A stretch of 64,000 nucleotides of DNA from Mytilus trossulus (Eukaryota), in NCBI RefSeq assembly GCF_036588685.1, contig NC_086385.1, positions 27,861,216 through 27,925,215 on the forward strand, written 5' to 3'. Below, piece by piece: positions 39,144 to 60,700 of the stretch; positions within the stretch are counted from its first letter, which is position 1; the number at the start of each line of letters is the position of its first letter. Under the pieces are notes generated by a model, which was given only the letters and a program-made list of their open reading frames with translations, was not told the origin of the DNA and searched no databases. Made by a program: the position numbers and the translations under genes.

Positions 39144-41312
39144 TACTCAAATCTATATTATAATGTTACAAATCAAAAGGAAAAGACAAAATATGTTGTT
39201 TGAAAGCAGAGAAGATATCTTGTATTCATGTGTGCTGTGATTTAGCAAATAAATGTAATATTGTCAAGGTTAAGTAAGATCTATTGGCTTATTTCACTAT
39301 TTGCATGATAAAGAAATATAAAGTACTCCTGCTGACATCTATCGAACAAAATATAGGCTCTCAAAGAGTCAAACATATAACTTAACACATATATAATACG
39401 CATTATAATCTGTGTACATAGTTTTATCCTTTTAAAACAGTGAACGTTAACTAGGCCTGAACACATCAAACTTATATTTACTGGTTTAACAACATTCTTA
39501 TGTCATTCAAGTGTACTAGACATGTCAATAAGCATTTTAAATATGACTATTACTTCGACAATCAGTGCAGCTATAAAACTTTTTAAAGATTTCAAATTGA
39601 TGTGAATTATGAAATGTCAAGAGCATTTGCGTGAATTGAAGGTTAAAGTTTCAATGTTTAAACGGTTGAATATGAACACAAAAGGTCGCACCGCCATTTT
39701 GATATATGCTTAGACTTTTAAGACATATGCAAAGAAAGCGCTATCAAGGCAAAAATAATTTAAAACAAACAAAAGGAAAAACACGGTTACCTTAGCCGTA
39801 TTTGGCACACCATTTTGGTATTTTGGGTCCTCAATGCTCGTCAACTTTGTATTTGTTTGGATTTATAACTTTTTTTAATCTGAGCGTCACTGATGAGTGT
39901 TAAGAAGACGAAACGCGCGTCTGCCGTATTAGATTATAATCCTGGTACCTTTTAAAGATTGAGCAATATTTACGCAACCTTTACAAGCATGAACTCGAGT
40001 GATCTGGAAAAATAAACAGTTCCAAGTTGCATAATAGTTTAATGTTTACGTAGTACAGTATCTTTGTAGTACATGTTGATCTTACTGTTTGAGACATTCT
40101 CAATTTCCATTCTCAACTTTGTTTTTATAATAATACACGAACGAACAAAAAACATACAAAAATCAATAACGATAATATTTATAATAATATGGATTTAACA
40201 AACCAATTGGTTTCTTATTATACATTATATATAACACATTGCAATCACAGTGTTTCATATTTCATTATATTCAATAGATAGAAGCCAAGACCATTTGTTT
40301 TCTGTATTTATAATAATTAATAAATATATGTTTTATGGAATAATTCAACTATGCTTGCCGTTGTTCGAATGCTGATTGTCATCTTCAATAATTAGATGTA
40401 AAGCAAAAATATTACAAAATCCTTGTTCCCTATTAATATTTTAAAAATCCTGCTCAAAACTAATTTATTATCACTAAGTTTCATTAATGTTAATTGTGTT
40501 CGTTCAGGAAATATCTTTTGATTTGATAAGTTCTTATAGGTTCTTACTTTAACCGTTTATATGTAGCATTCCATAAAAATCATATCTAAATTGCATGTAC
40601 CTCTTACTTAAACATCTTGAATCTCATTTAAATTGAGATTATTAATATTAACAATCTGTTAATTGGCAAATAATAATAAAAACAACCAATACATATCTTG
40701 TACGTATACTGTTTTTGTGCATATCAAAATGATTAATCCTACCTGTAATAGGTTGACCTAACAAATTACTTGTATGCAGGTTTTTGATTTTGCAGATAAT
40801 TTTATTAATAAACAAATAACAACAATATGTGGTAGATTACGACCAAGGTCCTCATAAACTGCTTACATTGTGACATTGCTATAAACTGCCAGTATATACT
40901 TATAACGTTATAGGCATGTATATATTTGTGATAATTTACAAGTGAATAAAAATAAGGTTAATCTTTATCGTTCAAACCATAATATATTAGTTTTTGTTAT
41001 ACTACATCGCAACAGTATGCCAATGGTGTGAGAAGTTTTATATGCCTTTTTCAAATTGTTTTTCGTCATACTCCAGCTAGCATTCATACATGGATGTTCG
41101 GTTTAGAATGATCCTTGGTCTTTTAATTGTGAACTGAAAAAATAAACAGAAATATTGATAAAAAAAAATAAAAATAAACAACATCGTGTATGGTTGTATA
41201 CTTTCGGGAAATAACTTATCAAAGAACTAATGAAGGATATCTTTATTTTATTTTGAATTCGACATGATTTAATGACAACATACAGCTCACATGTTATCAT
41301 CAACCTTAAATA

Positions 41313-41361: not shown

Positions 41362-41498
41362 CCATTGGAGATTCTCTCATGTTTCTCACCTCTTTTCCAT
41401 TAAACATTTCTGTACTTTGATACCACGGAGACATCAACACTTCACCTTCATTAATCATATAGTCAGTATTCGTATAAATCTGAAAAAGAACATATATA

Positions 41499-42705
41499 CA
41501 CATGAAAAAAAGTATTGCAACACCTTGATTTTTTTAAAACTTGAAAAATTAACCTCTTTTTTTGGATGAAATATAGTAAAATATTTGTAGAATATTCTTC
41601 AAATATAGTTTATGATAACATTGGCATTTAAACGAACAAAAAATGTTTTAAAAAAAATTATTTATATGACCACAATTTTGATAACAAAATGAAGTGTTTT
41701 TTGTACAAAAAAAATGCATTTTACAACTATTACTGTAGTCGAACATTACAATGTCAGACATTTTAAAATTAATCTTCCGAAGACTGTTCACATCATGAGT
41801 GATCGTTTTACGCCAAAGACTTAGTACTGTGTGCGCAGCCTCCATTCAAACGGATAACCGCATCAAAACGTCTTCTGATTCCTGCCATAAATCGACTAAT
41901 TTGATTCTAAGGTAGCAGCAACCATTTCTGATGAAGGACATTGTTTATTTCATGGTGTGTTTGAACTGTGGTGTCCTTTCGCGCACTTTACGCCCAATAA
42001 TGTCCCATATATGCTCGATATAGTTCAAATCGGGCCAAGAAAGATGAACCGAATTCTATTGATCAATGGATTTTCCTCCACAATGCTAATTTTCAACTTT
42101 GGCGAGCTCTGCACTACATGGGATATGGAAAACTGTGTTTCTGTTCGTAAGAAAAGGTATCAGAAATGGTCTTATCGAACGATAACCAGTAGCGATGAGT
42201 CGATCTCAAACAGTTCTTGTTAAAAGGCTCCTGTATACCCACCTCTCTCTTTTTAGAATTGTATTGTTTGCAATGGATTTCCTTCTGACCAACCTTCATT
42301 ATGCCTAAATTTCCCTAGCAAATGGTATAGTGGAATGGTGATGACCAACAATACATGCAATTGTTACAGCGACATCCCTGCTTCGCTCATGCTGATAATC
42401 TGCCATCTTGCTGCAGTTAAGAGTTGTCGAGGACCCATTACAAGGTGTCAATCACATAACTTCAAAAACTTGGTTATTTAAAGTGTTGAAAACAATGAGG
42501 ATTAAAACACCTGTTTTGCTGTTTACGGGTACAGTAGCTGCATGTGCAAATAATAACTTATCGAGTCGATATTTATTGAGTAAACTCAGGTGATATTTAA
42601 ATAATGTTTAACTAATTCTATTGTACCAAACTATATCACAAAAAAATAAAAAGTGTTTTCTAAATTCTAATTTCAATTTGGTGTTGCAATACTTTTTTCC
42701 AGGTG
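41499..42705 (-). mobile_element. decayed Tc1/mariner element
   Basis: TA-flanked 26-bp TIRs (cacatgaaaaaaagtattgcaacacc / ggtgttgcaatacttttttccaggtg). The minus-strand remnant reads PDLNYIEHIWDIIGRKVRER...KWLLLP*NQISRFMAGIRRRFDAVIRLNGG, i.e. the Tc1 SPDLNPIE motif and C-terminus with a frameshift and a stop. Confidence 0.85.
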
Positions 42706-43400: not shown

Positions 43401-46400
43401 TCAAATGCAACGTACTTTGTTTGTGCAATCATTTGAAATATCAATCTCCTTCTGGTGTTTGGATTCTTTATCTTGGCTTTTATAAACAGACGCATACATA
43501 TCCATTGGATTATAAAAACTTCCTCTAATACTACTCGGACGAAACTGACTCATATCCTCTACATCGCCACTAAAAAAATGTTTTGTAAATTGTGAAGATC
43601 AAGCTGGAAACATTCATATGATATCATGGTTATATAATATGTTTGTTCTACATTCTACATAATATACATGCTATAGTCATCACTGTAGCCTTAATCAGAA
43701 CATAAGAAGGTTATTCACTGAAGGCAATATTTGTTTTTCTTTTTAAATATCACGGACTTTTAACACGTAGGACATGTAGGAAGAGTAAAAGAAGGAATAA
43801 TAATTTTTCAATAAAAGTCATAGGTGATTTTTTCAAAAGCCAGCTGACTTGTTCCAAACCAATTGCTATCATTTGTATGCATGTTTACATCATAGAACAT
43901 AAAAATACGTACACGGACTCAATGGCCTTTGTCATACTTTTCACTTTTCGTCTCTTTAAATAGTACAGAAAACAAGTAATCATTATTACAATACTAAGGA
44001 CTGTACCGATAGTAGCAGTTATAGCAATTATATACTTAGACTCCAAAGCCAGCTTTTCTGTTTGAATTTCACATTTCGATCCAGAAATGATGAAGTCTCC
44101 AATCTGTGAGCATCTGTGACAATAGAAAAGATATAGTTTGTTAAAATTTCACAAACTTACCTCGTTAGTTCGTTAAATTTGATTACCATCTGCTGCACAT
44201 TGCAACTGCGTAAAATGTGAATACTACAAGGTGCATGCTCGTTTTGGTTTTTAGTTGTAATCTTTCTTTTTTTACAGATACATTTCTATTAAAACATTGC
44301 CCTAACCATTTTGACACATAATTTTAACTTCTTCGTCCTCACTTAAACTGTGCCATAATAAAAGGTTAAAGGAAAACAATGCGATAAAAAATCACACTCT
44401 ACTGAAATAATAAACAACACATGTTCCCCATTAATTCAAAACACATGTAACTAGGGGCGGTTTTAGGCATTGCGGAATTATAGAGGGTGATAAAGGGGGG
44501 TTCTTGCACGAAAAAAAAAACGTAAAATAAAATATAGTTTCACGTTAAACGTGAAATAATTTATGTAATGAACATTGCACGTAAAATAAATACTTTTATG
44601 TGAACCTTTTGTGACTGAGTCACTGTCTCCTTTTATATATTAACTCTTTGTTTACTTGATATTCCCGATTTAGTATACATGTACACATTTATGATATAAT
44701 TATTTTTCGACTTTTAAAAAAAGTATTTATTGACAACCCCTGCCAAGTGTTTGAATTTTATTTGGAAAATACCGAGCCCGCAAAATAAGACTTTGAAAAT
44801 CACGATGCACGTAAAATTAAATACTAGTAAGCAGAACACGTTGAACGAGGCATCCGTTTTGCACGACTGCACGTCAAATAAAAAAGTAAAAACACGTTGA
44901 ATGTGAAATAAAAAACGGCGATCACGTTGCACGAAGATAACCCTTTACCACTTTACAATTTTTATATCTATTCATAACATGTATAAATTTAGGAAAAGAA
45001 ATTCACCGATTGTGCAATGATAATTTATAAGATGGCAGTATACCATGAGTGTATCCTAATTAGTTCTTTAAATTATATTTTCCGTTTTTAAATATTTCTT
45101 TTAAAGATTAAACTTCAGTGTTAGATTCGTAAACTTTTAGAATAAGTGTTAACAAAGGATCGATAAGGTTATCCGGCTCGTATCTAAATATCTGGGCACA
45201 GTAAACAACGTCGTTGTTAATAAAAAAAAAATGTACTATCCTTTCTACAAATACAGTCTAAAACCGTTGCTTTGGTCATCTTATTACATGCACGATTGGT
45301 AAACAACTTGAGAGGTATGTGGTACACAAATCCATAAACCAATGCCTTTTTGTTAAAGATGATATTTAATATATATTTGATTTGTTAATTCTTATTTTGC
45401 GATAATTGATTATTATTTCATTGATGGTTTACATACCGACACAATGCTTGACCTTTGTTGTCAATAAAACAGTGCCCATCATGTTCACATTCAACTCCAT
45501 AGCAGTTTGATATGCACGTATTAGTTTTTAAGTAATACCCAATACCACACAATAATTCATCCCGTTTGTCAGTACTGCTTTGTTTCTTTATTTCTAAAAT
45601 AATATTGATTCATTTATATAACAGATAAAACTAAACGCGAACAAACTATATTGTGTGTTTGCTTTACAGTTTCCATTGTAGTGATTGCAAAAAAGGTATC
45701 ATAGTACAAATCTTTTAACTCTTTTCAAGCAAATGACAATTTTCAGTTTTTAAAAAATCATTACTAATTTGGTATTGAATTGCAAATAAATAATTGAAGT
45801 TAGGAATATTATATAAACTTTGCAATGCTAAATAAAATTGAATCATACTTTATGTTTTGTCATCTAAAGCAGAAATACATTTATTATAAATTAGCAAGAA
45901 CAAAAGAAAATAAAAAGCAAAACAAGGAACACATGCAACTTGAACAGACATACAAATATAGATAACTTTTTTTAAGTGATACCTTGAGTATCATAAATTA
46001 CTTTATGCATTGTGTATATATATCTTACCTGATTCCATTCTACTTTCCGTTACGTTTTCTCCAGTTATAGTAAAATCCTCAAATGTCCCATTGATAAGTA
46101 TTTGTTTTGTCTCTTCAGCTATGTCTAAAAATGTTTGATTACCGAAATCATGGGTGAATGGTTCAACTTTTACTTTGTATCCAACTTCTAAACTGAAAGT
46201 GATATATTTACATTCAAAAACTTCATAGATGATTTAACAACGTTTCGCTATTAACTGAATGCAAAGATAAAGTGAATAAATTGCGAAAACGGCGAAAATG
46301 TTTTAAGTAGATGCAAACACATTAACTACATTGGGATTTTATAAACCAGAAGGTTTTATATGTAATAACATTTCCGTTACCTTATTCTGCACCAGATTCA

Positions 46401-49400
46401 ATTTATAATGAATATATTATAATGTGTGTTCATTTTTTCTTCTGATTGATGTCACATTTTCATTGTTACAATCGCACTTGTTGAATGTTTTCTCCATGTC
46501 CAGTGTATTGCAAATGTAATGATTATGTTGTATATTGCTTTATTCTATGCAAGCATCTGTATCAATATCGGTTAACATATTGGTGTTTAAAACTGCTACA
46601 AGCTGGTTCAAAATATTCGGTAACGACCTCTGCCAATTTATGACAAAGTTCAGACTAATAAATTTTACAAATTGATTTGTCCACACGAATACAGTCGGAA
46701 AATGTCATGCATTTTCATTTGAAAAGCAGCAACAAAAGGCAATTTACTTTACATAAATGATCATTAAATTCATTAAATAATTCTGTAAATTCAAATTAAA
46801 TCAAAAGTTAATATTTCTTGATTGATGCATTTAAAATGGTTTTTTTAAGAAATGCCTATATCTATTCAGATATATGAAAGTTGTTATCCGTTCTATTGAT
46901 GTGTTTGAGCTTTAAATTTTGCCATTTGATTACCCAGTTTCCGTTTTGATTTTTCCACGGAGTTCATTATATTTTTGTGATTCTCTTTTTGTTTATATAA
47001 TTTTTCGAAAATGTAAGTTTATTATTTTCTAAAACTTCGAAGAAATCCTTGATATAACGGAGGGCAAACTTTAATATTTTGTATTTCTGTACTTACGTCG
47101 GATTTGTGTTTCTTTTTCTCCGTTTTACAGGTTTGTCAGGCAGATATCTATTCGCATTAAATACAAAAATCAAAATTAATACATATTTTCATTTTATTAA
47201 ATTCAACAGTATGTTAAGGGTTTTATAATCATTTATAAAACCCTTAACATACTGTTGAAGTAAAAAAACACACGAAAAAACAAAAGATATCTTCTTTTTT
47301 ACTTTTTTAACTATATAGTGTCAGCTTCACTGAAGATTGCGAGCTCTTTATATCTTCATGTGCAGATGGCATATGACATAGTTTAAATGTATGAGTTGAC
47401 GTTGTTTGCTTTCAGTTTTAATAAGTGAGCAATACAACATTGTATTTTAAGCCCCAACGGCATCTATTAGTGATTTTATGATCACAAATACACGTTTACT
47501 GGCGGCTCTAAGACTAGATATGCAACCATTCAACACCCAATTAGTGTCGTTTGAGCCCAAAAATCAATACAGTTATCGCATAACTAGCTGTCACATTCAA
47601 TCAGTACGATTTGATTAACATTTTAACAGTTGATCTATACTAACTAAAATTTATAACTAATAACTAAAAATCAATACAGTTATCGCATAACTAGCTGTCA
47701 CATTCAATCAGTACGATTTGATTAAAATTTTAACATTTGATCTATACTAACTAAAATTTATAACTAATAACTAAAAATCTAAACTAAGCAATATATGGGC
47801 TCGATCATATTTGAGCTGTAAAGGTTTTTATTAATATACATACGTAAATCTGTATATGTTTACGTCTACAAATCCTAATATACTACTATACTGGTTGAAC
47901 AACTACAAAAAAATGGACCACATAAGTTATTTATTATCTGAAGTGTAGGCATATTGTATGTTGGATTGCTGTGGGGAAGCTTTTTTTTCTACTAATTACA
48001 ACTTATCATATAGAAAAAAAACATATAATATCTGGGTATCTTTTTATGAAACGACATAAGTACGTCCACAGCATAAAATATAACACCCAAAAGCCAAATG
48101 AACATAGTTATGCTGTTCTTTATCTCAAAATCAGTGAGTGTTTTCCGTTGATTTTAATGAATGCTGATAATATGTTGGAGCTTCTAATAACATCATCGTC
48201 ATTTGTTGATAGTTTGATCATTGGCAATGATGCCACTACTCACTAGATAAATTTTACAAAAAGTACTCCTCTAAAACTACTAGGCAATATTTTAGCGTGA
48301 AAATGCCATTTTTTGTCTATTACTTTGACAGCTGTTTGAAATAGAGAAAATCTGACAGGGCCTCAAAATGTTTAAAAATAAATTCCGCACAATTTTGTGC
48401 AAATTTAACATAGACTAATATGGACAATCAATGGTGGTATTACGACTATTTAATGATGAAATACATTTTTTCTTCATTTTTACTTATTATCCCTAAACTA
48501 TGATAGATGGAGAAAAAATAAATGCAAAATATATCATCAAGACAAGTTCCACAAATAAGTCAGCATGGTCGAAATAGTAAGTCGGCTCCTCATTAAAGTT
48601 GTTACGCGCGTCTTGTGTACTAAATTATAATATTGGTACCATTGATAACTATTTACACTACTGGGTCGATGCCACTGCTGGTGGACGTTTTTCCCCCAGG
48701 GTGTCACCAGCCCAGTAGTCAACACTTGTTGACATGAATATTAATAATGTGGTAATTTTTATGAATTTCCAGTTTACAAAACTTTATTTCTTTTTTAAAC
48801 TAAGGATTTTCTAATCCCAGGCAATGATTACCTTAGCCGTATTTGGCACAATTTTTTGGAATTTTTGGATCGTCAATGCTCTTAAATTGTGTACTTGTTG
48901 GCTTTATAAATATTTTGATATGAGCGTCACTGATGAGTCTTATGTAAACGAAACGGGCGGCTAGCGTATAATCCTAGTACCTTTGATAATTAGTTTGATG
49001 ACGATGTTTATTAATCACATGTACATGTACGCACAAAGACCAACATGACCAATGTGAACGAGACAGACCCGTTACTCCTTGTATATATATTTTGAGACAA
49101 TGCATGTTGTTTCATATGTATAAAATAAATGTTGTGACACTGATTTAACTCTACTTAATGATAAATATCAGCTTACCGGAGGAGTAAGTTTAATTTTCAT
49201 CGTTATGAAATCGCTTGATGTAGAATCATTTAGCGATCCTGGAAAAGTCCCTTGCAAGAATATATTAATTTCCACCTCTACTTGTACACCTTAAAATAAT
49301 AAATGGACGATTACTTTAAAACTGCTCTCTTTTTTACGACGTGTATTGCAGTAAATTTACACAATCCAATGCATACTAGTAAGCAGCTGCATATAAACAT

Positions 49401-52400
49401 GTAAAGAAAAAAAGGTTAAAAAAAACACTCCCGGTTAATTGTGTGTGTGTTACATAAATTATGATTCCAATTATAAGACAAACGGAAAATCATAGAAATC
49501 GTTTCATTGCGTGTACAGTATTATCATCATAGGATAATGGACTAATCTTGTAACTTCAAAGCTTCATAATTTAGAATGGAATTTATATCGTTCTTATGTA
49601 AGTTAACATTTGCAAACCGAAATTATAAAAAAGTCCATTGTAAGAATAATACACTTACTTGTATCTGGGGGTTTAGTAGATGGTTCGGGATCAGTTGTTG
49701 TCGGTATAACTGGTGATGTAGGAAAAGTAGGCTTAACAGTTGTTGCAGTTTTGGACGGTGCTGTGTGGGTAATAGAGGAAGTAGATAGAGATATTCCTAC
49801 TGATGTACCATCATTTGTTACAGATTCCGTAGTCGAATAATTTACAGATGATGTGCCTGTAGAAGTTACTGGTGTAACAGATGCCGTTAGTGTTGGTGCT
49901 ACAGCGGATGACGTTGTATGTGTTTGAGGTGACGTACTCGTATGTGTTTCTAACGATGTACCATCATTTGTAATATATTCCGTAGTCTTAAAAGTTACAG
50001 ATGATGTGTCTGTGGAAGTTACTGGTGTGACAGATGCCGTTAATGTTGGTGTTACAGAGGATGACGTTGTATGTGTTTTATGTGACGTAGTCGTATGTGT
50101 TTCTAACGATGTACCATCATTTGTAACAGATTCCGTAGTCGAATTATTTACAGATGATGTGCCTGTAGAAGTTACTGGTGTAACAGATGCCGTTAATGTT
50201 GGTGTTACAGCGGATGACGTTGTATGTGTTTTATGTGACGTAGTCGTATGTGTTTCTAACGATGTTCCATCATTTGTAACATATTTCGTAGTCGAGTAAG
50301 TTACTGGTGTAACAGATGCCGTTAATGTTGGTGCTACAGCGGATGACGTTGTATGTGTTTTATGTGACGTAGTCGTATGTGTTTCTAACGATGTACCATC
50401 ATTTGTAACAGATTCCGTAGTCGAATAATTTACAGATGATGTGCCTGTAGAAGTTACTGGTGTAACAGATGCCGTTAGTGTTGGTGTTACAGCGGATGAC
50501 GTTGTATGTGTTTGAGGTGACGTAGTCGTATGTGTTTCTAACGATGTACCATCATTTGTAATATATTCCGTAGTCTTAAAAGTTACAGATGATGTGTCTG
50601 TGGAAGTTACTGGTGTGACAGATGCCGTTAATGTTGGTGTTATAGCGGATGACGTTGTATGTGTTTTATGTGACGTAGTCGTATGTGTTTCTAACGATGT
50701 ACCATCATTTGTAACAGATTCCGTTGTCGAATAATTTACAGATGATGTGCCTGTAGAAGTTACTGATGTGACAGATGCCGTTAATGTTGATATAACAGAG
50801 GATGATGTTGTATGTGTTTTCGGTGACGTAGTCGTATGTGTTTCTAACGATGTTCCATCATTTGTAACAGATTTCGTAGTCGAGTAAGTTACTGGTGTAA
50901 CAGATGCCGTTAATGTTGGTGCTACAGCGGATGACGTTGTATGTGTTTTCGGTGACATAGTCGTATGTGTTTCTAACGATGTACAATCATTTGTAACAGA
51001 TTCCGTAGTCGAATAATTAACAGATGATGTGCCTGTAGAAGTTACTGGTGTAACAGATGCCGTTAATGTTGGTGTTACAGCAGATGTCTTTGTATGTGTT
51101 TTAGGTGACGTAGTCGTATGTGTTTCTAACGATGTACCAGCATTTGTTACAAATTCCGTAGTCGAATAAGTTACAGATGAAGTGTCTGAATGAGTTACTG
51201 GTATAACAGATGCCGTTAATGTTGGTGTTACAGCGGATGACGTTGTACGTGTTTTCGGTGACGTAGTCGTATGTGTTTCTAACGATGTTCCATCATTTGT
51301 AACATATTTCGTAGTCGAGTAAGTTACTGGTGTAACAGATGCCGTTAATGTTGGTGCTACAGCGGATGACGTTGTTTGTGTTTTAGGTGACGTAGTCGTA
51401 TGTGTTTCTAACGATGTACCATCATTTGTAACAGATTCCGTAGTCGAATAAGTTACAGATGATGTGCCTGTAAAAGTTACTGGTGTGACAGATGCTGTTA
51501 ATGTTGGTGTTACAGCGGATGACGTTGTATGTGTTTTAGGTGACGTAGTCGTATGTGTTTCTAACGATGTACCATCATTTGTAACAGATTCCGTAGTCGA
51601 ATTAGTTACAGATGATGTGTCTGTAGAAGTTACTGGTGTGACAGATGCTGTTAATGTTGGTGTAACAGCGGATGACGTTGTATGTGTTTTATGTGACATA
51701 GTCGTATGTGTTTCTAACGATATACCATCATTTGTAACATATTTCGTAGTCGAGTAAGTAACTGGTGTAACAGATTCTGTTAATGTTGGTGTTACAGCGG
51801 ATGACGTTGTATGTGATGTACCTTCATTTGTAACAGAAGACGTAGTTGTCGGTGTTTCTAATGATGTGCCTTCATTTGTAACAGAAGACGTTGTTGTCGG
51901 TGTTTTTAATGATGTAACGTCATGTGTAATAGAAGACGTAGTTGTCGGTGTTTTTAATGATGTAACGTCATGTGTAATAGAAGACGTAGTTGTCGGTGTT
52001 TCTAATGATGTGCCTTCATTTGTAACAGAAGACGTAGTTGTCGGTGTTTCTAATGATGTAACTTCATGTGTAATAGAAGACGTAGTTGTCGGTGTTTCTA
52101 ATGATGTAACTTCATTTGTAACAGAAGACGTAGTTGTCGGTGCTTCTAATGATGTTACTTCATGTGTAATAGAAGACGTAGTTGTCGGTGTTTTTAATGA
52201 TGTAACAACATGTGTTATAGAAGACGTAGTTGTCGGTGTTTCTAATGATGTAACGTCATGTGTAATAGAAGACATAGTTGTCGGTGTTTCTAATGATATA
52301 CCTTCATTTGTAACAGAAGACGTAGTTGTCGGTGTTTCTAATGATGTAACTTCATTTGTAACAGAAGACGTAGTTGTCGGTGCTTCTAATGATGTTACTT

Positions 52401-55400
52401 CATGTGTAATAGAAGACGTAGTTGTCGGTGTTTTTAATGATGTAACGTCATGTGTTATAGAAGACGTAGTTGTCGGTGTTTCTAATGATGTAACGTCATG
52501 TGTAATAGAAGACATAGTTGTCGGTGTTTCTAATGATATACCTTCATTTGTAACAGAAGACGTAGTTGTCGGTGTTTTTAATGATGTAACGTCATGTGTA
52601 ATAGAAGACGTAGTTGTCGGTGTTTCTAATGATGTGCCTTCATTTGTAACAGAAGACGTAGTTGTCGGTGTTTCTAATGATGTAACTTCATGTGTAATAG
52701 AAGACGTAGTTGTCGGTGCTTCTAATGATGTACCTTCATTTGTAACAGAAGTTGTTGTGTGTGTTTCCAATGATGTAACTTCATTTGTAACAGAAGACGT
52801 AGTTGTCGGTGTTTCTAATGATGTAACTTCGTTTGTAACAGAAGACGTAGTTGTCGGTGTTTCTAATGATGTGCCTTCATTTGTAACAGAAGACGTAGCT
52901 GTCGGTGTTTCTAATGCTGTACCTTCATTTGTAACAGAAGACGTAGTTGTGGGTGTTTCTAATGATGTAACTTCATTTGTAACAGAAGACGTAGTTGTGG
53001 GTGTTTCTAATGATGTAACTTCATGTGTAAAAGAAGACGTAGTTGTCGGTGTTTCTAATGATGTGCCTTCATTTGTAACAGAAGACGTAGTTGTCGGTGT
53101 TTTTAATGATGTAACGTCATGTGTAATAGAAGACGTAGTTGTCGGTGTTTTTAATGATGTAACGTCATGTGTAATAGAAGACGTAGTTGTCGGTGTTTCT
53201 AATGATGTGCCTTCATTTGTAACAGAAGACGTAGTTGTCGGTGTTTCTAATGATGTAACTTCATGTGTAATAGAAGACGTAGTTGTCGGTGTTTCTAATG
53301 ATGTAACTTCATTTGTAACAGAAGACGTAGTTGTCGGTGCTTCTAATGATGTTACTTCATGTGTAATAGAAGACGTAGTTGTCGGTGTTTTTAATGATGT
53401 AACGTCATGTGTTATAGAAGACGTAGTTGTCGGTGTTTCTAATGATGTAACGTCATGTGTAATAGAAGACATAGTTGTCGGTATTTCTAATGATATACCT
53501 TCATTTGTAACAGAAGACGTAGTTGTCGGTGCTTCTAATGATGTTACTTCATGTGTAATAGAAGACGTAGTTGTCGGTGTTTCTAATGATGTACCTTCAT
53601 TTGTAACAGAAGTTGTTGTGTGTGTTTCCAATGATGTAACTTCATTTGTAACAGAAGACGTAGTTGTCGGTGTTTTTAATGATGTAACGTCATGTGTAAT
53701 AGAAGACGTAGTTGTCGGTTTTTCTAATGATGTGCCTTCATTTGTAACAGAAGACGTAGTTGTCGGTGTTTCTAATGATGTAACTTCATGTGTAATAGAA
53801 GACGTAGTTGTCGGTGCTTCTAATGATGTACCTTCATTTGTAACAGAAGTTGTTGTGTGTGTTTCCAATGATGTAACTTCATTTGTAACAGAAGACGTAG
53901 TTGTCGGTGTTTCTAATGATGTAACTTCATTTGTAATAGAAGACGTAGTTGTCGGTGTTTCTAATGATGTGCCTTCATTTGTAACAGAAGACGTAGTTGT
54001 CGGTGTTTCTAATGATGTGCCTTCATTTGTAACAGAAGACGTAGCTGTCGGTGTTTCTAATGCTGTACCTTCATTTGTAACAGAAGACGTAGTTGTGGGT
54101 GTTTCTAATGATGTAACTTCATTTGTAACAGAAGACGTAGTTGTGGGTGTTTCTAATGATGTAACTTCATTTTTAACAGAAGACGTAGTTGTGGGTGTTT
54201 CTAATGATGTACCTTCATTTGTAACAGAAGTTGTTGTGTGAGTTTCCAATGATGTAACTTCATTTGTAACAGAAGACGTAGTTGTCGGTGTTTCTAATGA
54301 TGTAACTTCATGTGTAATAGAAGACGTAGTTGTCGGTGTTTCTAATGCTGTACCTTCATTTGTAACAGAAGACGTAGTTGTAGGTGTTTCTAATGATGTA
54401 ACTTCATGTGTAATAGAAGACGTAGTTGTCGGTGTTTCTAATGATGTAACTTCATTTGTAACAGAAGACGTAGTTGTCGGTGTTTCTAATGATGTGCCTT
54501 CATTTGTAACAGAAGACGTAGTTGTCGGTGTTACTAATGATGTACCTTCATTTGTAACAGAAGACGTAGTTGTCGGTGTTACTAATGATGTAACTTCATG
54601 TGTAATAGAAGACGTAGTTGTCGGTGTTTCTAATGATATACCTTCATTTGTAACAGAAGACGTAGTTGTCGGTGTTTCTAATGATGTAACTTCATTTGTA
54701 ACAGAAGACGTAGTTGTCGGTGTTTCTAATGATGTACCTTCATTTGTAACAAAAGACGTAGTTGTCGGTGTTTCTAATGCTGTACCTTCATTTGTAACAG
54801 AAGACGTAGTTGTCGGTGTTTCTAATGATGTACCTTCATTTGTAACAGAAGACGTAGTAGTGAGTGTTTCTAATGATGTACCTTCATTTGTAACAGAAGA
54901 CTTACTGGAATAAGTTACACATGAATTGCCTGTAGCAGTTACAGGTTGAACATATTCTGCAGTTGTCAGTGTTACAGTAGATGACGCTGTCGATGTTTCA
55001 GAAGACGTAGTTGTAGGTGTTTGCAATGATGTACCTTCTTTTGTAATAGATGACGTCGTTGTGTGTGTTTCTAATGATGTAACTTCATTTGTAATAGATG
55101 ATGTAGTTGTTGGTGTTTCTAATGATGTACCTGCATTACTTCTAATATTGCTTCCAAGTATTGCTGTCACTATAAGAAAAACAAAACGCTCATTTTTTTT
55201 AAAACAAGACGAGAAAGCTTTTATTCGATAATCTGATGAGATTGTGAAGCTTTCCATACAAAAAAGGAATACGGAAAATAGACGTACTTTTTTATTTTAA
55301 AAGTCCTAACAAAATTAAATGATTTTGTTTTAAATCATAAACCCTTTTCTGACCATTTAAATATCATTATAACACGTTAAAATGTGTACATGGTGTATAT

Positions 55401-57774: not shown

Positions 57775-60700
57775 GGCATCGGACTAGGACTTCTTTTGAA
57801 CTGAATTTTAATGTGCGTATTGTTATGCATTTACTTTTCTACATTGGCTAGAGTTATAAGGGGAGGGTTGAGATATCATAAACATGTTTAATCGCGCCGC
57901 ATTTTTGCGCCTGTTCCAAATCAGGAGCCTCTGGCCTTTTTTAGTCTTGTATAATTTTTAATTTTAGTCTATTGTGTATAATTCGGAGCTTAGTATGACA
58001 TCCATTATCACTGTACTAGTCAGTATACATTTTTTTAAGGGGCCAGCTGAAGGACGCTCACGGGTGAAGAGGTTTCTCATTACATTAAAGACCCATTGGT
58101 GGCATTCGGCTGTTGTCTGCTCTATGGTCAGGTTGTTGTCATTTTGACACAGTTCCAATTTCCTTTCTCAATTTTAAAAGTATCTATGATTCTATGCAAT
58201 TTAGGTATTTTGTCTAGTGTTGTAGACTATATAAAGCAATCCAAAGAATTGTGAAAATAAAGTCCTCATATATGTCAATTATATTTTCTTTCTTTTTGGG
58301 ACTGTTTTATATTCATACCGATAGACACGAAGAAAAAACCACACATCAAATGAACATTATTTATCGGTAAATACAAGAACATAGCACAAAATACCAATAA
58401 CATAGAAAAACATTGTTCATTGTTATAAAAATACAAAATGGATTTAATCATACCTTTCAAAAATTGGTGCTCTTTTCCAACTATCATATACGAATTTGTC
58501 GATACACATTTCTTAAATGCTATAACTTAAAATCTATGCGAAAAAAAATGATTTATTGCTAGTACGGTGACCGAGTAAGGAAAAGTCGCATGTGTACCGA
58601 GCTGTATTGTCATTCGGACTTTATTGCTATAAATTATAATATTGGTAGTTGAAATGCTGAAGTTTACATTTTGACTTGTCGTCAAACAATCGTCTGGTGC
58701 ATTTTTGTTGTTGTAAAATGGTCTATACAGTACGATAGCTTATTTTTCTGATTTTGATCAAATTTGTCCGTTTTTGAAGAGTGGCATTACCAACTATTCA
58801 AGCTTAATCTTTAGAGTTATTATTTAAAGATAATTTTCTTCCTCTTAAAGAAACATATACATGATATAAAAAAGTTTGATGTGGTGCACAATCGACATTC
58901 AAATACTGAAATATGTTTCCTGGAGCTGTAGACATTTTGCTATGAAACATAAAGGTAATTGGTCACTTCATTTGCTAATGTCATATTAAATCTTACAACT
59001 GTTTTTGTTGTACTTCATATACTTAACTTTCCAGACACAATCGGTCATCATTTATAGGTGGCGACTTAGCTTTTATACAGCCATGAACATTTAAACGGTA
59101 TGTGGAACAAAATGGCAACAGAAACAATTTAATGATTTCAAGGAATCAGGTGGCATTGTAGGTATTTAAAAAAAAACATAAGTCTGAACTCGTTTCATTG
59201 ACACTTACATACAACCGAATTTTTTTAGCATTCCTTAGTGGTGCTTCAGTATTGCTGCCAATAATGCAAGTTAACAAGAGAAAACAAGATAAAAAAATAT
59301 GACAAGAGGAGTTGAACATTTTATTGCCATAGTGAAGCATCTGAATCAAATCACGACTTGAAGGTCAATTTTTGAGTTTTTAATGACAAAGGTAAAGAAA
59401 TTTTAAAATATGACCTAAAACAAACCGTATCGGTATTAGAATTAAAATCCAAAGTCTCTTCTGCACCTTTTATACCTTGTATTGGTTCAATCTATTGATG
59501 CAAAGAAAAAATAAAACAGTTGGTGACCTTGCAAATAACTATTATGAAAATATCATTTACTAGAGCACATACAACAACTCTCGTGTTTGACCTCCACGAC
59601 ATAAAAATAAACCTCTATAAAGTCTACTGAAATAGGTTGACGCACAAAGACAGGTAATAAAAGGCAGAAGTATTCTTGACTGGACGAAATTCATGTATGA
59701 TAAAGAAACTAAACATACTCTTCTTAATGGAACATGTAGTTTTATTCTTCAAAATTTTGATCCCCTCCCTATAATTCTACCGGATTGTCAGCTTTACTTA
59801 GCTTGCACGGGTTTTTTTCAAATCCTGAAATTGTCATTATTATGATAGTAGTTTCAGAGACTTTTTTTAATTACTGTCGTTAATGACTCAGATATGGATG
59901 AGAATATTCTGTGTGTACACTGGTTAACAAACAGATTACAAATTTAGATGATTTTTTTTATTTCTTGATGCAGATTGGGAACATTACCAGAAAATTAATT
60001 TTTGGTCACCCTTCTATAAGTAATAAAAATTACATGAAAACATTGACATGAGATTTGACAACTGAAATTTATCCCTAAAATACAATCATAGTTACTTTTG
60101 TTTCTGATTATTTTCACGGCGGGTCTTGTCCATAAAATAAACACAAATAGCGTCTAGCGTGTATTGTTATTTTGTTAAATTATTAATGAGGTGTATTCAT
60201 AATACCATTGCGCTTCTTAGATAACCTTGTTAACTTATATTGAAAACTTTGCTTAACTTGGCGTCCGTCGTCCGTTGTCGTCTATTACCTTTTGAAACAT
60301 CTTCGAAGTCCACTTAAACTGTTGGGCATTATTTAAACCAAACTTAATTATTGTGGTAACTTGTAAAAACTATATTATATTACCCCACCTGCCAAACAAG
60401 ATAGTGGTAAGTTGCATGTATTGTCTATTATTTTGAAAACCGCTACATACTGCGAAATGCCGAAATTTGAAAAAAAAATAGGCAGGACAGGCGTTTTGAG
60501 TAAAAAAAAAAGAGGGCAGGATGAGATACTTGAAAAAAAAAAGTCAGGATGACAATTTATGTAAAAAAAGTCAGGATAAACTAAAAAAAATATACCGACA
60601 GCCTCGAGTGCCGTTTCTCACTCTCTTATATACCCCAGAGCGAATATACTATTTTCTGGATAGGGGTGTTTTAGAAAACACCATTTCCTTGAACCTAACC

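Follow-up and report, generated by a model that had tools for sequence, protein, structure and literature searches.

SEA domains carry either a GS self-cleavage motif or a furin site in the loop that links their second strand to their third (beta2-beta3), according to the accessible portions of PMC6954182 and bioRxiv 10.1101/2025.08.18.670743. The same portions describe Notch2 and GPR126 as cut by furin in this loop, with halves that stay associated after the cut. The available part of PMC6954182 gives R-x-K/R-R as the furin consensus and reports that GPR110 and GPR116, close relatives of GPR126, keep GS. It also reports that the alternatively spliced exon 6 of GPR126 encodes a linker before the SEA domain, and that R468A abolishes cleavage in both isoforms; a dedicated exon for the furin site of GPR126 or Notch2 is not described in that part. 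KIAA1549, as presented in excerpts of PMC13570299 and bioRxiv 10.1101/2025.08.18.670743, is a mucin-like, O-mannosylated membrane protein with three SEA-like domains and a furin site. Membrane mucins as a class are defined in PMC1552070 (partial text), and MUC1, MUC3, MUC12, MUC13, and MUC17 combine a large single-exon PTS domain, one SEA domain, EGF-like segments, a transmembrane (TM) helix, and a tail.

The window analyzed here, a 64,000-nucleotide stretch of the Mytilus trossulus genome (contig NC_086385.1, positions 27,861,216 to 27,925,215), contains on its reverse strand a gene, referred to below as gene A, that is a mussel membrane mucin with the order PTS-SEA-EGF-EGF-TM-tail. This order is shared with MUC1, MUC3, MUC12, MUC13, and MUC17, a likeness of domain layout that does not imply orthology to a vertebrate MUC gene. 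In contrast to those mucins, gene A lacks GS and has a furin motif in the same loop, encoded by a separate exon. GPR126/ADGRG6 and Notch2 (S1 site) likewise have GSVVV replaced by R-x-K/R-R in the beta2-beta3 loop, but they are receptors, whereas gene A encodes a PTS mucin. KIAA1549 resembles gene A in being a mucin-like membrane protein without a self-cleavage motif and with a furin site in its membrane-proximal SEA domain; however, that site is in a different loop according to the accessible portion of bioRxiv 10.1101/2025.08.18.670743, and its glycan type and family also differ. The same domain order and loop register are found in SEA-EGF-TM proteins of the molluscs Haliotis, Patella, Lymnaea, Solemya, Liolophura, and Mytilus, where relatives are labeled mucin-3B-like, mucin-17-like, or SEA domain-containing. 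Most of these relatives, and three paralogs in the genome (E, F, and L), keep GS, while gene A does not. The closest named proteins to gene A are from Mytilus coruscus and M. edulis.

All features of gene A are given as window positions on the reverse strand. The PTS (mucin repeat) exon (49659..55169, with an approximate 5′ boundary) has ~1836 codons in repeat units of 48, 129, and 153 nt and belongs to an open frame (55296-49603) of 1897 codons with 57% Ser/Thr/Pro, a composition that suggests dense O-glycosylation. A candidate first coding exon with a signal-peptide-like stretch lies at 59209..59340, although its phase does not fit the PTS exon directly. The SEA domain begins with exon 1 (beta1 and alpha1; 49177..49289, phase 1-0), which matches the SEA profile of relatives, and continues with exon 2 (end of alpha1 and beta2; 47844..47902, 59 nt, phase 0-2), found in a contig and the same size in the paralogs, and exon 3 (beta3, alpha2, and beta4; 46029..46192, phase 2-1), placed by contig and alignment. 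Exon 3 of gene A is without the x-G-S codons that begin this exon in GS-type paralogs. Downstream are a cysteine-rich linker with the first EGF-like exon (45437..45593; a weak Pfam EGF match, E 0.076, under the cut-off) and an exon holding a second EGF-like segment, the transmembrane helix, and basic stop-transfer residues (43913..44113; weak transmembrane-type Pfam matches). Two cytoplasmic tail exons, at 43415..43569 and, in the spliced model, 41390..41478, together account for contig letters 445-688 (244), and the contig also places the last coding exon (18 residues and the stop) with the start of the 3′ untranslated region at 40873..41133. Gene A thus has the large PTS domain of a membrane-tethered SEA mucin and a single transmembrane helix and tail after its SEA and EGF-like segments.

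Between SEA exons 2 and 3 sits a mini-exon (47097..47147; 51 nt, phase 2-2) that encodes the beta2-beta3 loop with the furin motif. It runs from 47147 to 47097 with an AG acceptor, a GTAAGT donor, and phase 2 at both ends, and is translated into 16 residues that include RRKR (codons 47111..47122). This predicted furin site is the only R-x-K/R-R in the modeled ectodomain, PTS exon included. The neighbors of the mini-exon are the 59-nt exon ending at 47844 and the 164-nt exon starting at 46192; coordinates, phase, and residues all agree with the preliminary description of this DNA. Joining the exons at these coordinates, from the last part of the PTS exon through the tail, gives a frame free of stops with or without the mini-exon, and the SEA domain has no GS-hydrophobic motif in either form. 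The introns flanking the mini-exon and the region near the 3′ end of gene A contain a tandem duplication of 107 nt and several interspersed repeats of high copy number (47559-47779, 46884-46932, 48414-48970, and 41450-42700).

A transcript search matched three runs, none of them on record as RNA, and two behave as DNA. The remaining run (X1), which is putatively RNA and whose source may be a related species or population, gave one 1544-nt contig at a depth of 6.97 that is confined to exons. Its joints include 46192/47097 and 47147/47844, both with canonical ends, so that both mini-exon junctions occur in a single spliced contig and the transcript inclusion on which the original proposal depended is borne out. 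Relative to the genome, the contig has 0 differences in the mini-exon and 4 in 164 and 3 in 60 positions in the neighboring exons. The skip joint 46192/47844 was not listed among the assembled contigs of this one run, a type of data from which rare forms drop out. The mini-exon is likely included in nearly all transcripts. Shared-word homolog searches, which found one protein each, returned neither an annotated skip isoform nor a full-length ortholog.

The fold was assessed with an AlphaFold model of the M. coruscus relative P0028, built from a 32-row alignment, with gene A placed by alignment. P0028 is the M. coruscus counterpart of paralog B and has a complete SEA domain that is collinear with that of gene A (46 of 126 SEA positions identical). 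The model (mean pLDDT 71, with domain blocks mostly at 80-97 and the loop at 57) folds as beta-alpha-beta-beta-alpha-beta, with strands at 74-84, 121-134, 152-164, and 198-201 and helices at 98-115 and 176-191. The RYKR of P0028 (146-149) is inside the loop between the second and third strands (135-151). The first seven rows of a Foldseek search with this model were SEA-bearing chains, and VIA-align matched it to SEA5 of MUC16 with a Z of 11.2 (rmsd 2.6, 115 aligned), compared to 6.4 from rank 9 down. On a profile built from GS-type relatives only, the N-terminal half of the gene A domain scored 21.8 bits (≤10.6 for 500 shuffles), while its C-terminal half gave no score. Pfam SEA matched 4 of the 13 relatives scanned but none of the single exons of gene A, nor P0002, P0003, or P0028. 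The assignment of this region of gene A as a SEA domain, made in the preliminary description, is therefore supported by the model and the profile, with Pfam SEA itself silent. Alignment and the P0028 model also put the furin motif, as had been proposed, in the beta2-beta3 loop that holds GS in relatives. Gene A accordingly has the R-x-K/R-R of furin-cleaved SEA domains in this loop and lacks the G-S-hydrophobic motif that self-cleaving ones have in a tight beta2-beta3 turn.

A paralog search with the EGF-TM exon and Pfam SEA recovered a total of 12 loci, including gene A. Two of the 12 (I and J) were excluded, having no beta2 exon found between the PTS and TM exons; these near-identical PTS-EGF-TM genes (C38:93700-98700 and C13:56969600-56974600), in which no SEA exon was found, are possibly a duplicate assembly or a recent duplication, and their layout is reminiscent of HEG beside MUC13. 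In each of the 10 remaining loci, a phase-2 intron follows a phase 0-2 exon of 53-65 nt, although for K and L the layout is known only around this shared intron. In six of them (A, B, C, D, G, and H), the intron contains an open phase 2-2 cassette with R-x-K/R-R and no GS follows it; three (E, F, and L) have GS opening the next exon and no cassette; and K (C2:100107700-100108800) has neither and likely encodes an uncut SEA domain, judging from its sequence. None of the nine loci with either motif has both. This mutual exclusion supports the earlier proposal that the mini-exon replaces the GS loop. The six and three paralogs are related and do not amount to nine independent events, and a Fisher test of cassette versus GS (P = 0.012) ignores this kinship and is not relied on. 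Transcript support is for gene A, with the other paralogs being gene models. Locus E (C13:28348470-28352740) is a probable pseudogene: an in-frame TGA interrupts its TM exon, its donor is weak, and we found neither a SEA nor a PTS exon upstream.

The cassettes vary in length from 27 to 69 nt, and the basic motif is their sole common element. Gene A (51 nt, RRKR) is joined by B (69 nt, RYRR; ~84 kb from A, at about 27.82-27.83 Mb on C13), C (51 nt, RRRR; PTS exon at C13:28285364-28301419), D (57 nt, RKRR), and G and H (both 27 nt, with RRK completed by a split-codon arginine). The cassettes of B and P0028 have two cysteines that could form a small disulfide loop N-terminal to the cut, and those of D, G, and H have one cysteine each. 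A detector with a 30-nt minimum and no split codons, which would have missed G and H, found cassettes in 1 to 14 of 300 dinucleotide shuffles per intron and in 1 of 19 other introns of the family. After G and H had been seen, the detector was loosened, and the corresponding values were 1 to 12 of 300 shuffles and 0 of 24 other introns (27 kb). For the intron span of gene A, cassettes appeared in 5 of 300 shuffles with the stricter detector and in 2 of 300 with the looser one, and the matching intron has a cassette in five paralogs besides gene A. G and H were themselves found after the exclusion between mini-exon and GS had been proposed.

Of 56 database matches, the 32 covering the SEA region were aligned with paralogs A to F, and short EGF/TM fragments and unrelated matches were left out. 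A short GS-type turn is present in 22 of the 32 rows (GT or GC in two of them), including those from Patella, Haliotis, Lymnaea, Physella, Solemya, Sinanodonta, Mizuhopecten, and a sea urchin. Five rows have a furin loop (P0002, P0003, and P0028 from M. coruscus, P0044 from the chiton Liolophura, and P0029) and five have neither motif (P0009, P0014, P0037, P0045, and P0054); P0009 was considered as a furin type and rejected, with its basic run lying before beta2. Conservation of RxKR, which had been put forward as a check, holds in the three M. coruscus proteins: P0002 retains the six residues VKRRKR of the gene A mini-exon unchanged but just 3 of the 10 others, P0003 has VKRKKR, and P0028 has the motif noted above. 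The element common to A to D, G, H, P0002, P0003, P0028, P0029, and P0044 is R-x-K/R-R followed by a small or acidic residue. The models of P0002, P0003, and P0044 start within the intron that immediately precedes the mini-exon; two of these models are labeled MEP1B, which looks wrong for a mucin fragment.

Since GS is found in 22 of 32 relatives, it is likely the ancestral state. An intron occupies the same position in human MUC1. A plausible history would start from an old phase-2 intron directly preceding the GS codons, in which an in-frame exon encoding a basic motif would have arisen. This exon would have made self-cleavage dispensable, after which GS might have decayed (G and H) or its codons been lost (A, B, and D). 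Trees of 38 rows and 217 columns, with the loop masked and without G, H, K, and L, are compatible with the Mytilus furin rows as one clade (p-AU 0.29), and a single clade of all furin rows is borderline (p-AU 0.06, from 2000 replicates only). They are thus compatible with one or several origins of the furin-type loop, and we regard a repeated origin as about evenly balanced against a single one. The same balance applies to the idea that a furin mini-exon was recruited repeatedly at the self-cleavage loop of mollusc mucins, which would cover Mytilus A to D, Mytilus G and H, and the chiton protein; the further idea that some of these exons are skipped under regulation is improbable.

The sequence comparisons support well the view that a furin site has likely replaced self-cleavage in gene A and the cassette-bearing paralogs. 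The best overall reading, which we consider probable, is that gene A has a SEA domain without GS and with a mini-exon-borne RRKR in the same loop, that furin cuts there as predicted, and that the halves remain bound until pulled. Furin would act after RRKR in the Golgi, the halves would stay together at the cell surface as a non-covalent heterodimer because each contributes two of the strands of a single sheet, and the mucin would come off only under shear or a pulling force. In the P0028 model, the sheet combines beta1-beta2 from one half with beta3-beta4 from the other. Both cleavage and the association of the halves are argued by analogy with Notch2, MUC1, and GPR126, and genes with a convertase P domain are present in the genome. 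Furin prefers a small or acidic residue after R-x-K/R-R, and the pattern common to the furin-type rows fits this preference. That fit, and the appearance of the basic motif where GS is missing, argues against cleavage by a different protease, whether a trypsin-like extracellular enzyme or some other convertase, and against a loop that stays uncut as a charged binding patch. We consider these alternatives quite unlikely even though the genome, with 40 matches to the proprotein convertase P domain (furins and other genes together), offers many candidate enzymes. It is very unlikely that the furin cut releases the ectodomain constitutively, giving a secreted mucin and a membrane stub. A long open loop that stores no strain would favor such release, and the authors of the KIAA1549 work state that furin processing likely leads to ectodomain secretion (PMC13570299, accessible part); however, the halves share one sheet in the P0028 model, and furin-cut GPR126 SEA resists separation according to the available part of PMC6954182. 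The preliminary description had cast the outcome of cleavage as shed versus tethered mucin, a contrast that calls for revision. Both furin-cut and self-cut SEA halves stay associated until pulled in the accessible text of PMC6954182, and since cut halves stay bound in known cases, cleavage is not shedding. By analogy, the distinction would be better put as breakable versus unbreakable.

It had also been proposed that the symmetric mini-exon is a splice-controlled switch, which some tissues or states would skip to make an uncuttable mucin. The frame-keeping part of this proposal stands (51 nt, phase 2-2). However, an exon that originates within a phase-2 intron will be tolerated only if it is phase 2-2 and its length is divisible by three; symmetry is thus forced on any exon in this host intron and is no evidence of regulation. 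The pyrimidine content of the mini-exon acceptor (0.53) is among the weaker of 26 acceptors (range, 0.53 to 0.82), yet equally weak acceptors belong to ordinary exons (the EGF exon of A and the beta3 and EGF exons of B). A perfect 27-bp inverted repeat with a 4-nt loop (47202..47259; z of -8.9, 0 of 200 shuffles) forms a strong hairpin that ends 55 nt upstream of the mini-exon acceptor and might control skipping in gene A if such regulation existed. In a genome search that skips common words, it matched only itself; it is missing before the cassettes of B to D, and as a shared regulator of those paralogs it was rejected. Relatives with neither motif (locus K and the five rows listed above) indicate that such uncut SEA domains can exist, and the inclusion evidence comes from one contig set in which rare forms may be lost. 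On the other side, no skip joint was listed for run X1, all three M. coruscus models that span the loop include the mini-exon, and the geometry of a skipped product is unfavorable. After skipping, the anchors in beta2 and beta3 would be separated by 14 residues in A and B and by 12 in D, in comparison to 17 in 24 of 24 GS-type rows, because the downstream exon has lost the x-G-S codons in these three paralogs; P0003 has a gap at the anchor, and the 14 of P0044, whose 5′-truncated model had to be fitted to the beta2 columns, was not counted as a natural short turn. The gene A skip product, with a hairpin three residues shorter than in all 24 GS-type rows, would be without its turn and is likely unstable. 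Regulated skipping of the gene A mini-exon is therefore unlikely. The spacing after skipping is 17 in C, and G and H keep the positions in altered form; in these three paralogs, skipping could give a folded domain, making them better candidates for real skipping. The excerpt of PMC5074479 on MUC1 isoforms describes no cleavage switch.

A furin site in place of GS in this loop is already known from Notch and GPR126, while we found no published description of a mucin family in which a mini-exon delivers it, in the literature covered, which was mostly outside subscription journals. The reason for cutting SEA domains in the first place remains a matter of debate. Here, sister genes with the same exon layout have one of two motifs, self-cleavage or furin, at this position, and the finding that none of nine has both suggests that selection keeps the break rather than the chemistry. 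The GS-type paralog F and the furin-type paralogs A to D, G, and H form a natural paired set in which the release forces of a strained, self-cut domain and a relaxed, enzyme-cut domain could be compared. Gain of an exon in the intron at the cut loop may also represent a simple route from a MUC1-type SEA domain to a Notch/GPR126-type one. Elsewhere in the genome, the PTS exon of paralog C is a single open frame of 5352 codons (16 kb) with 74% Ser/Thr/Pro, and many of the P-domain matches lie in tandem clusters (C2, C3, and C10), an apparent expansion of convertase-like or P-domain genes.
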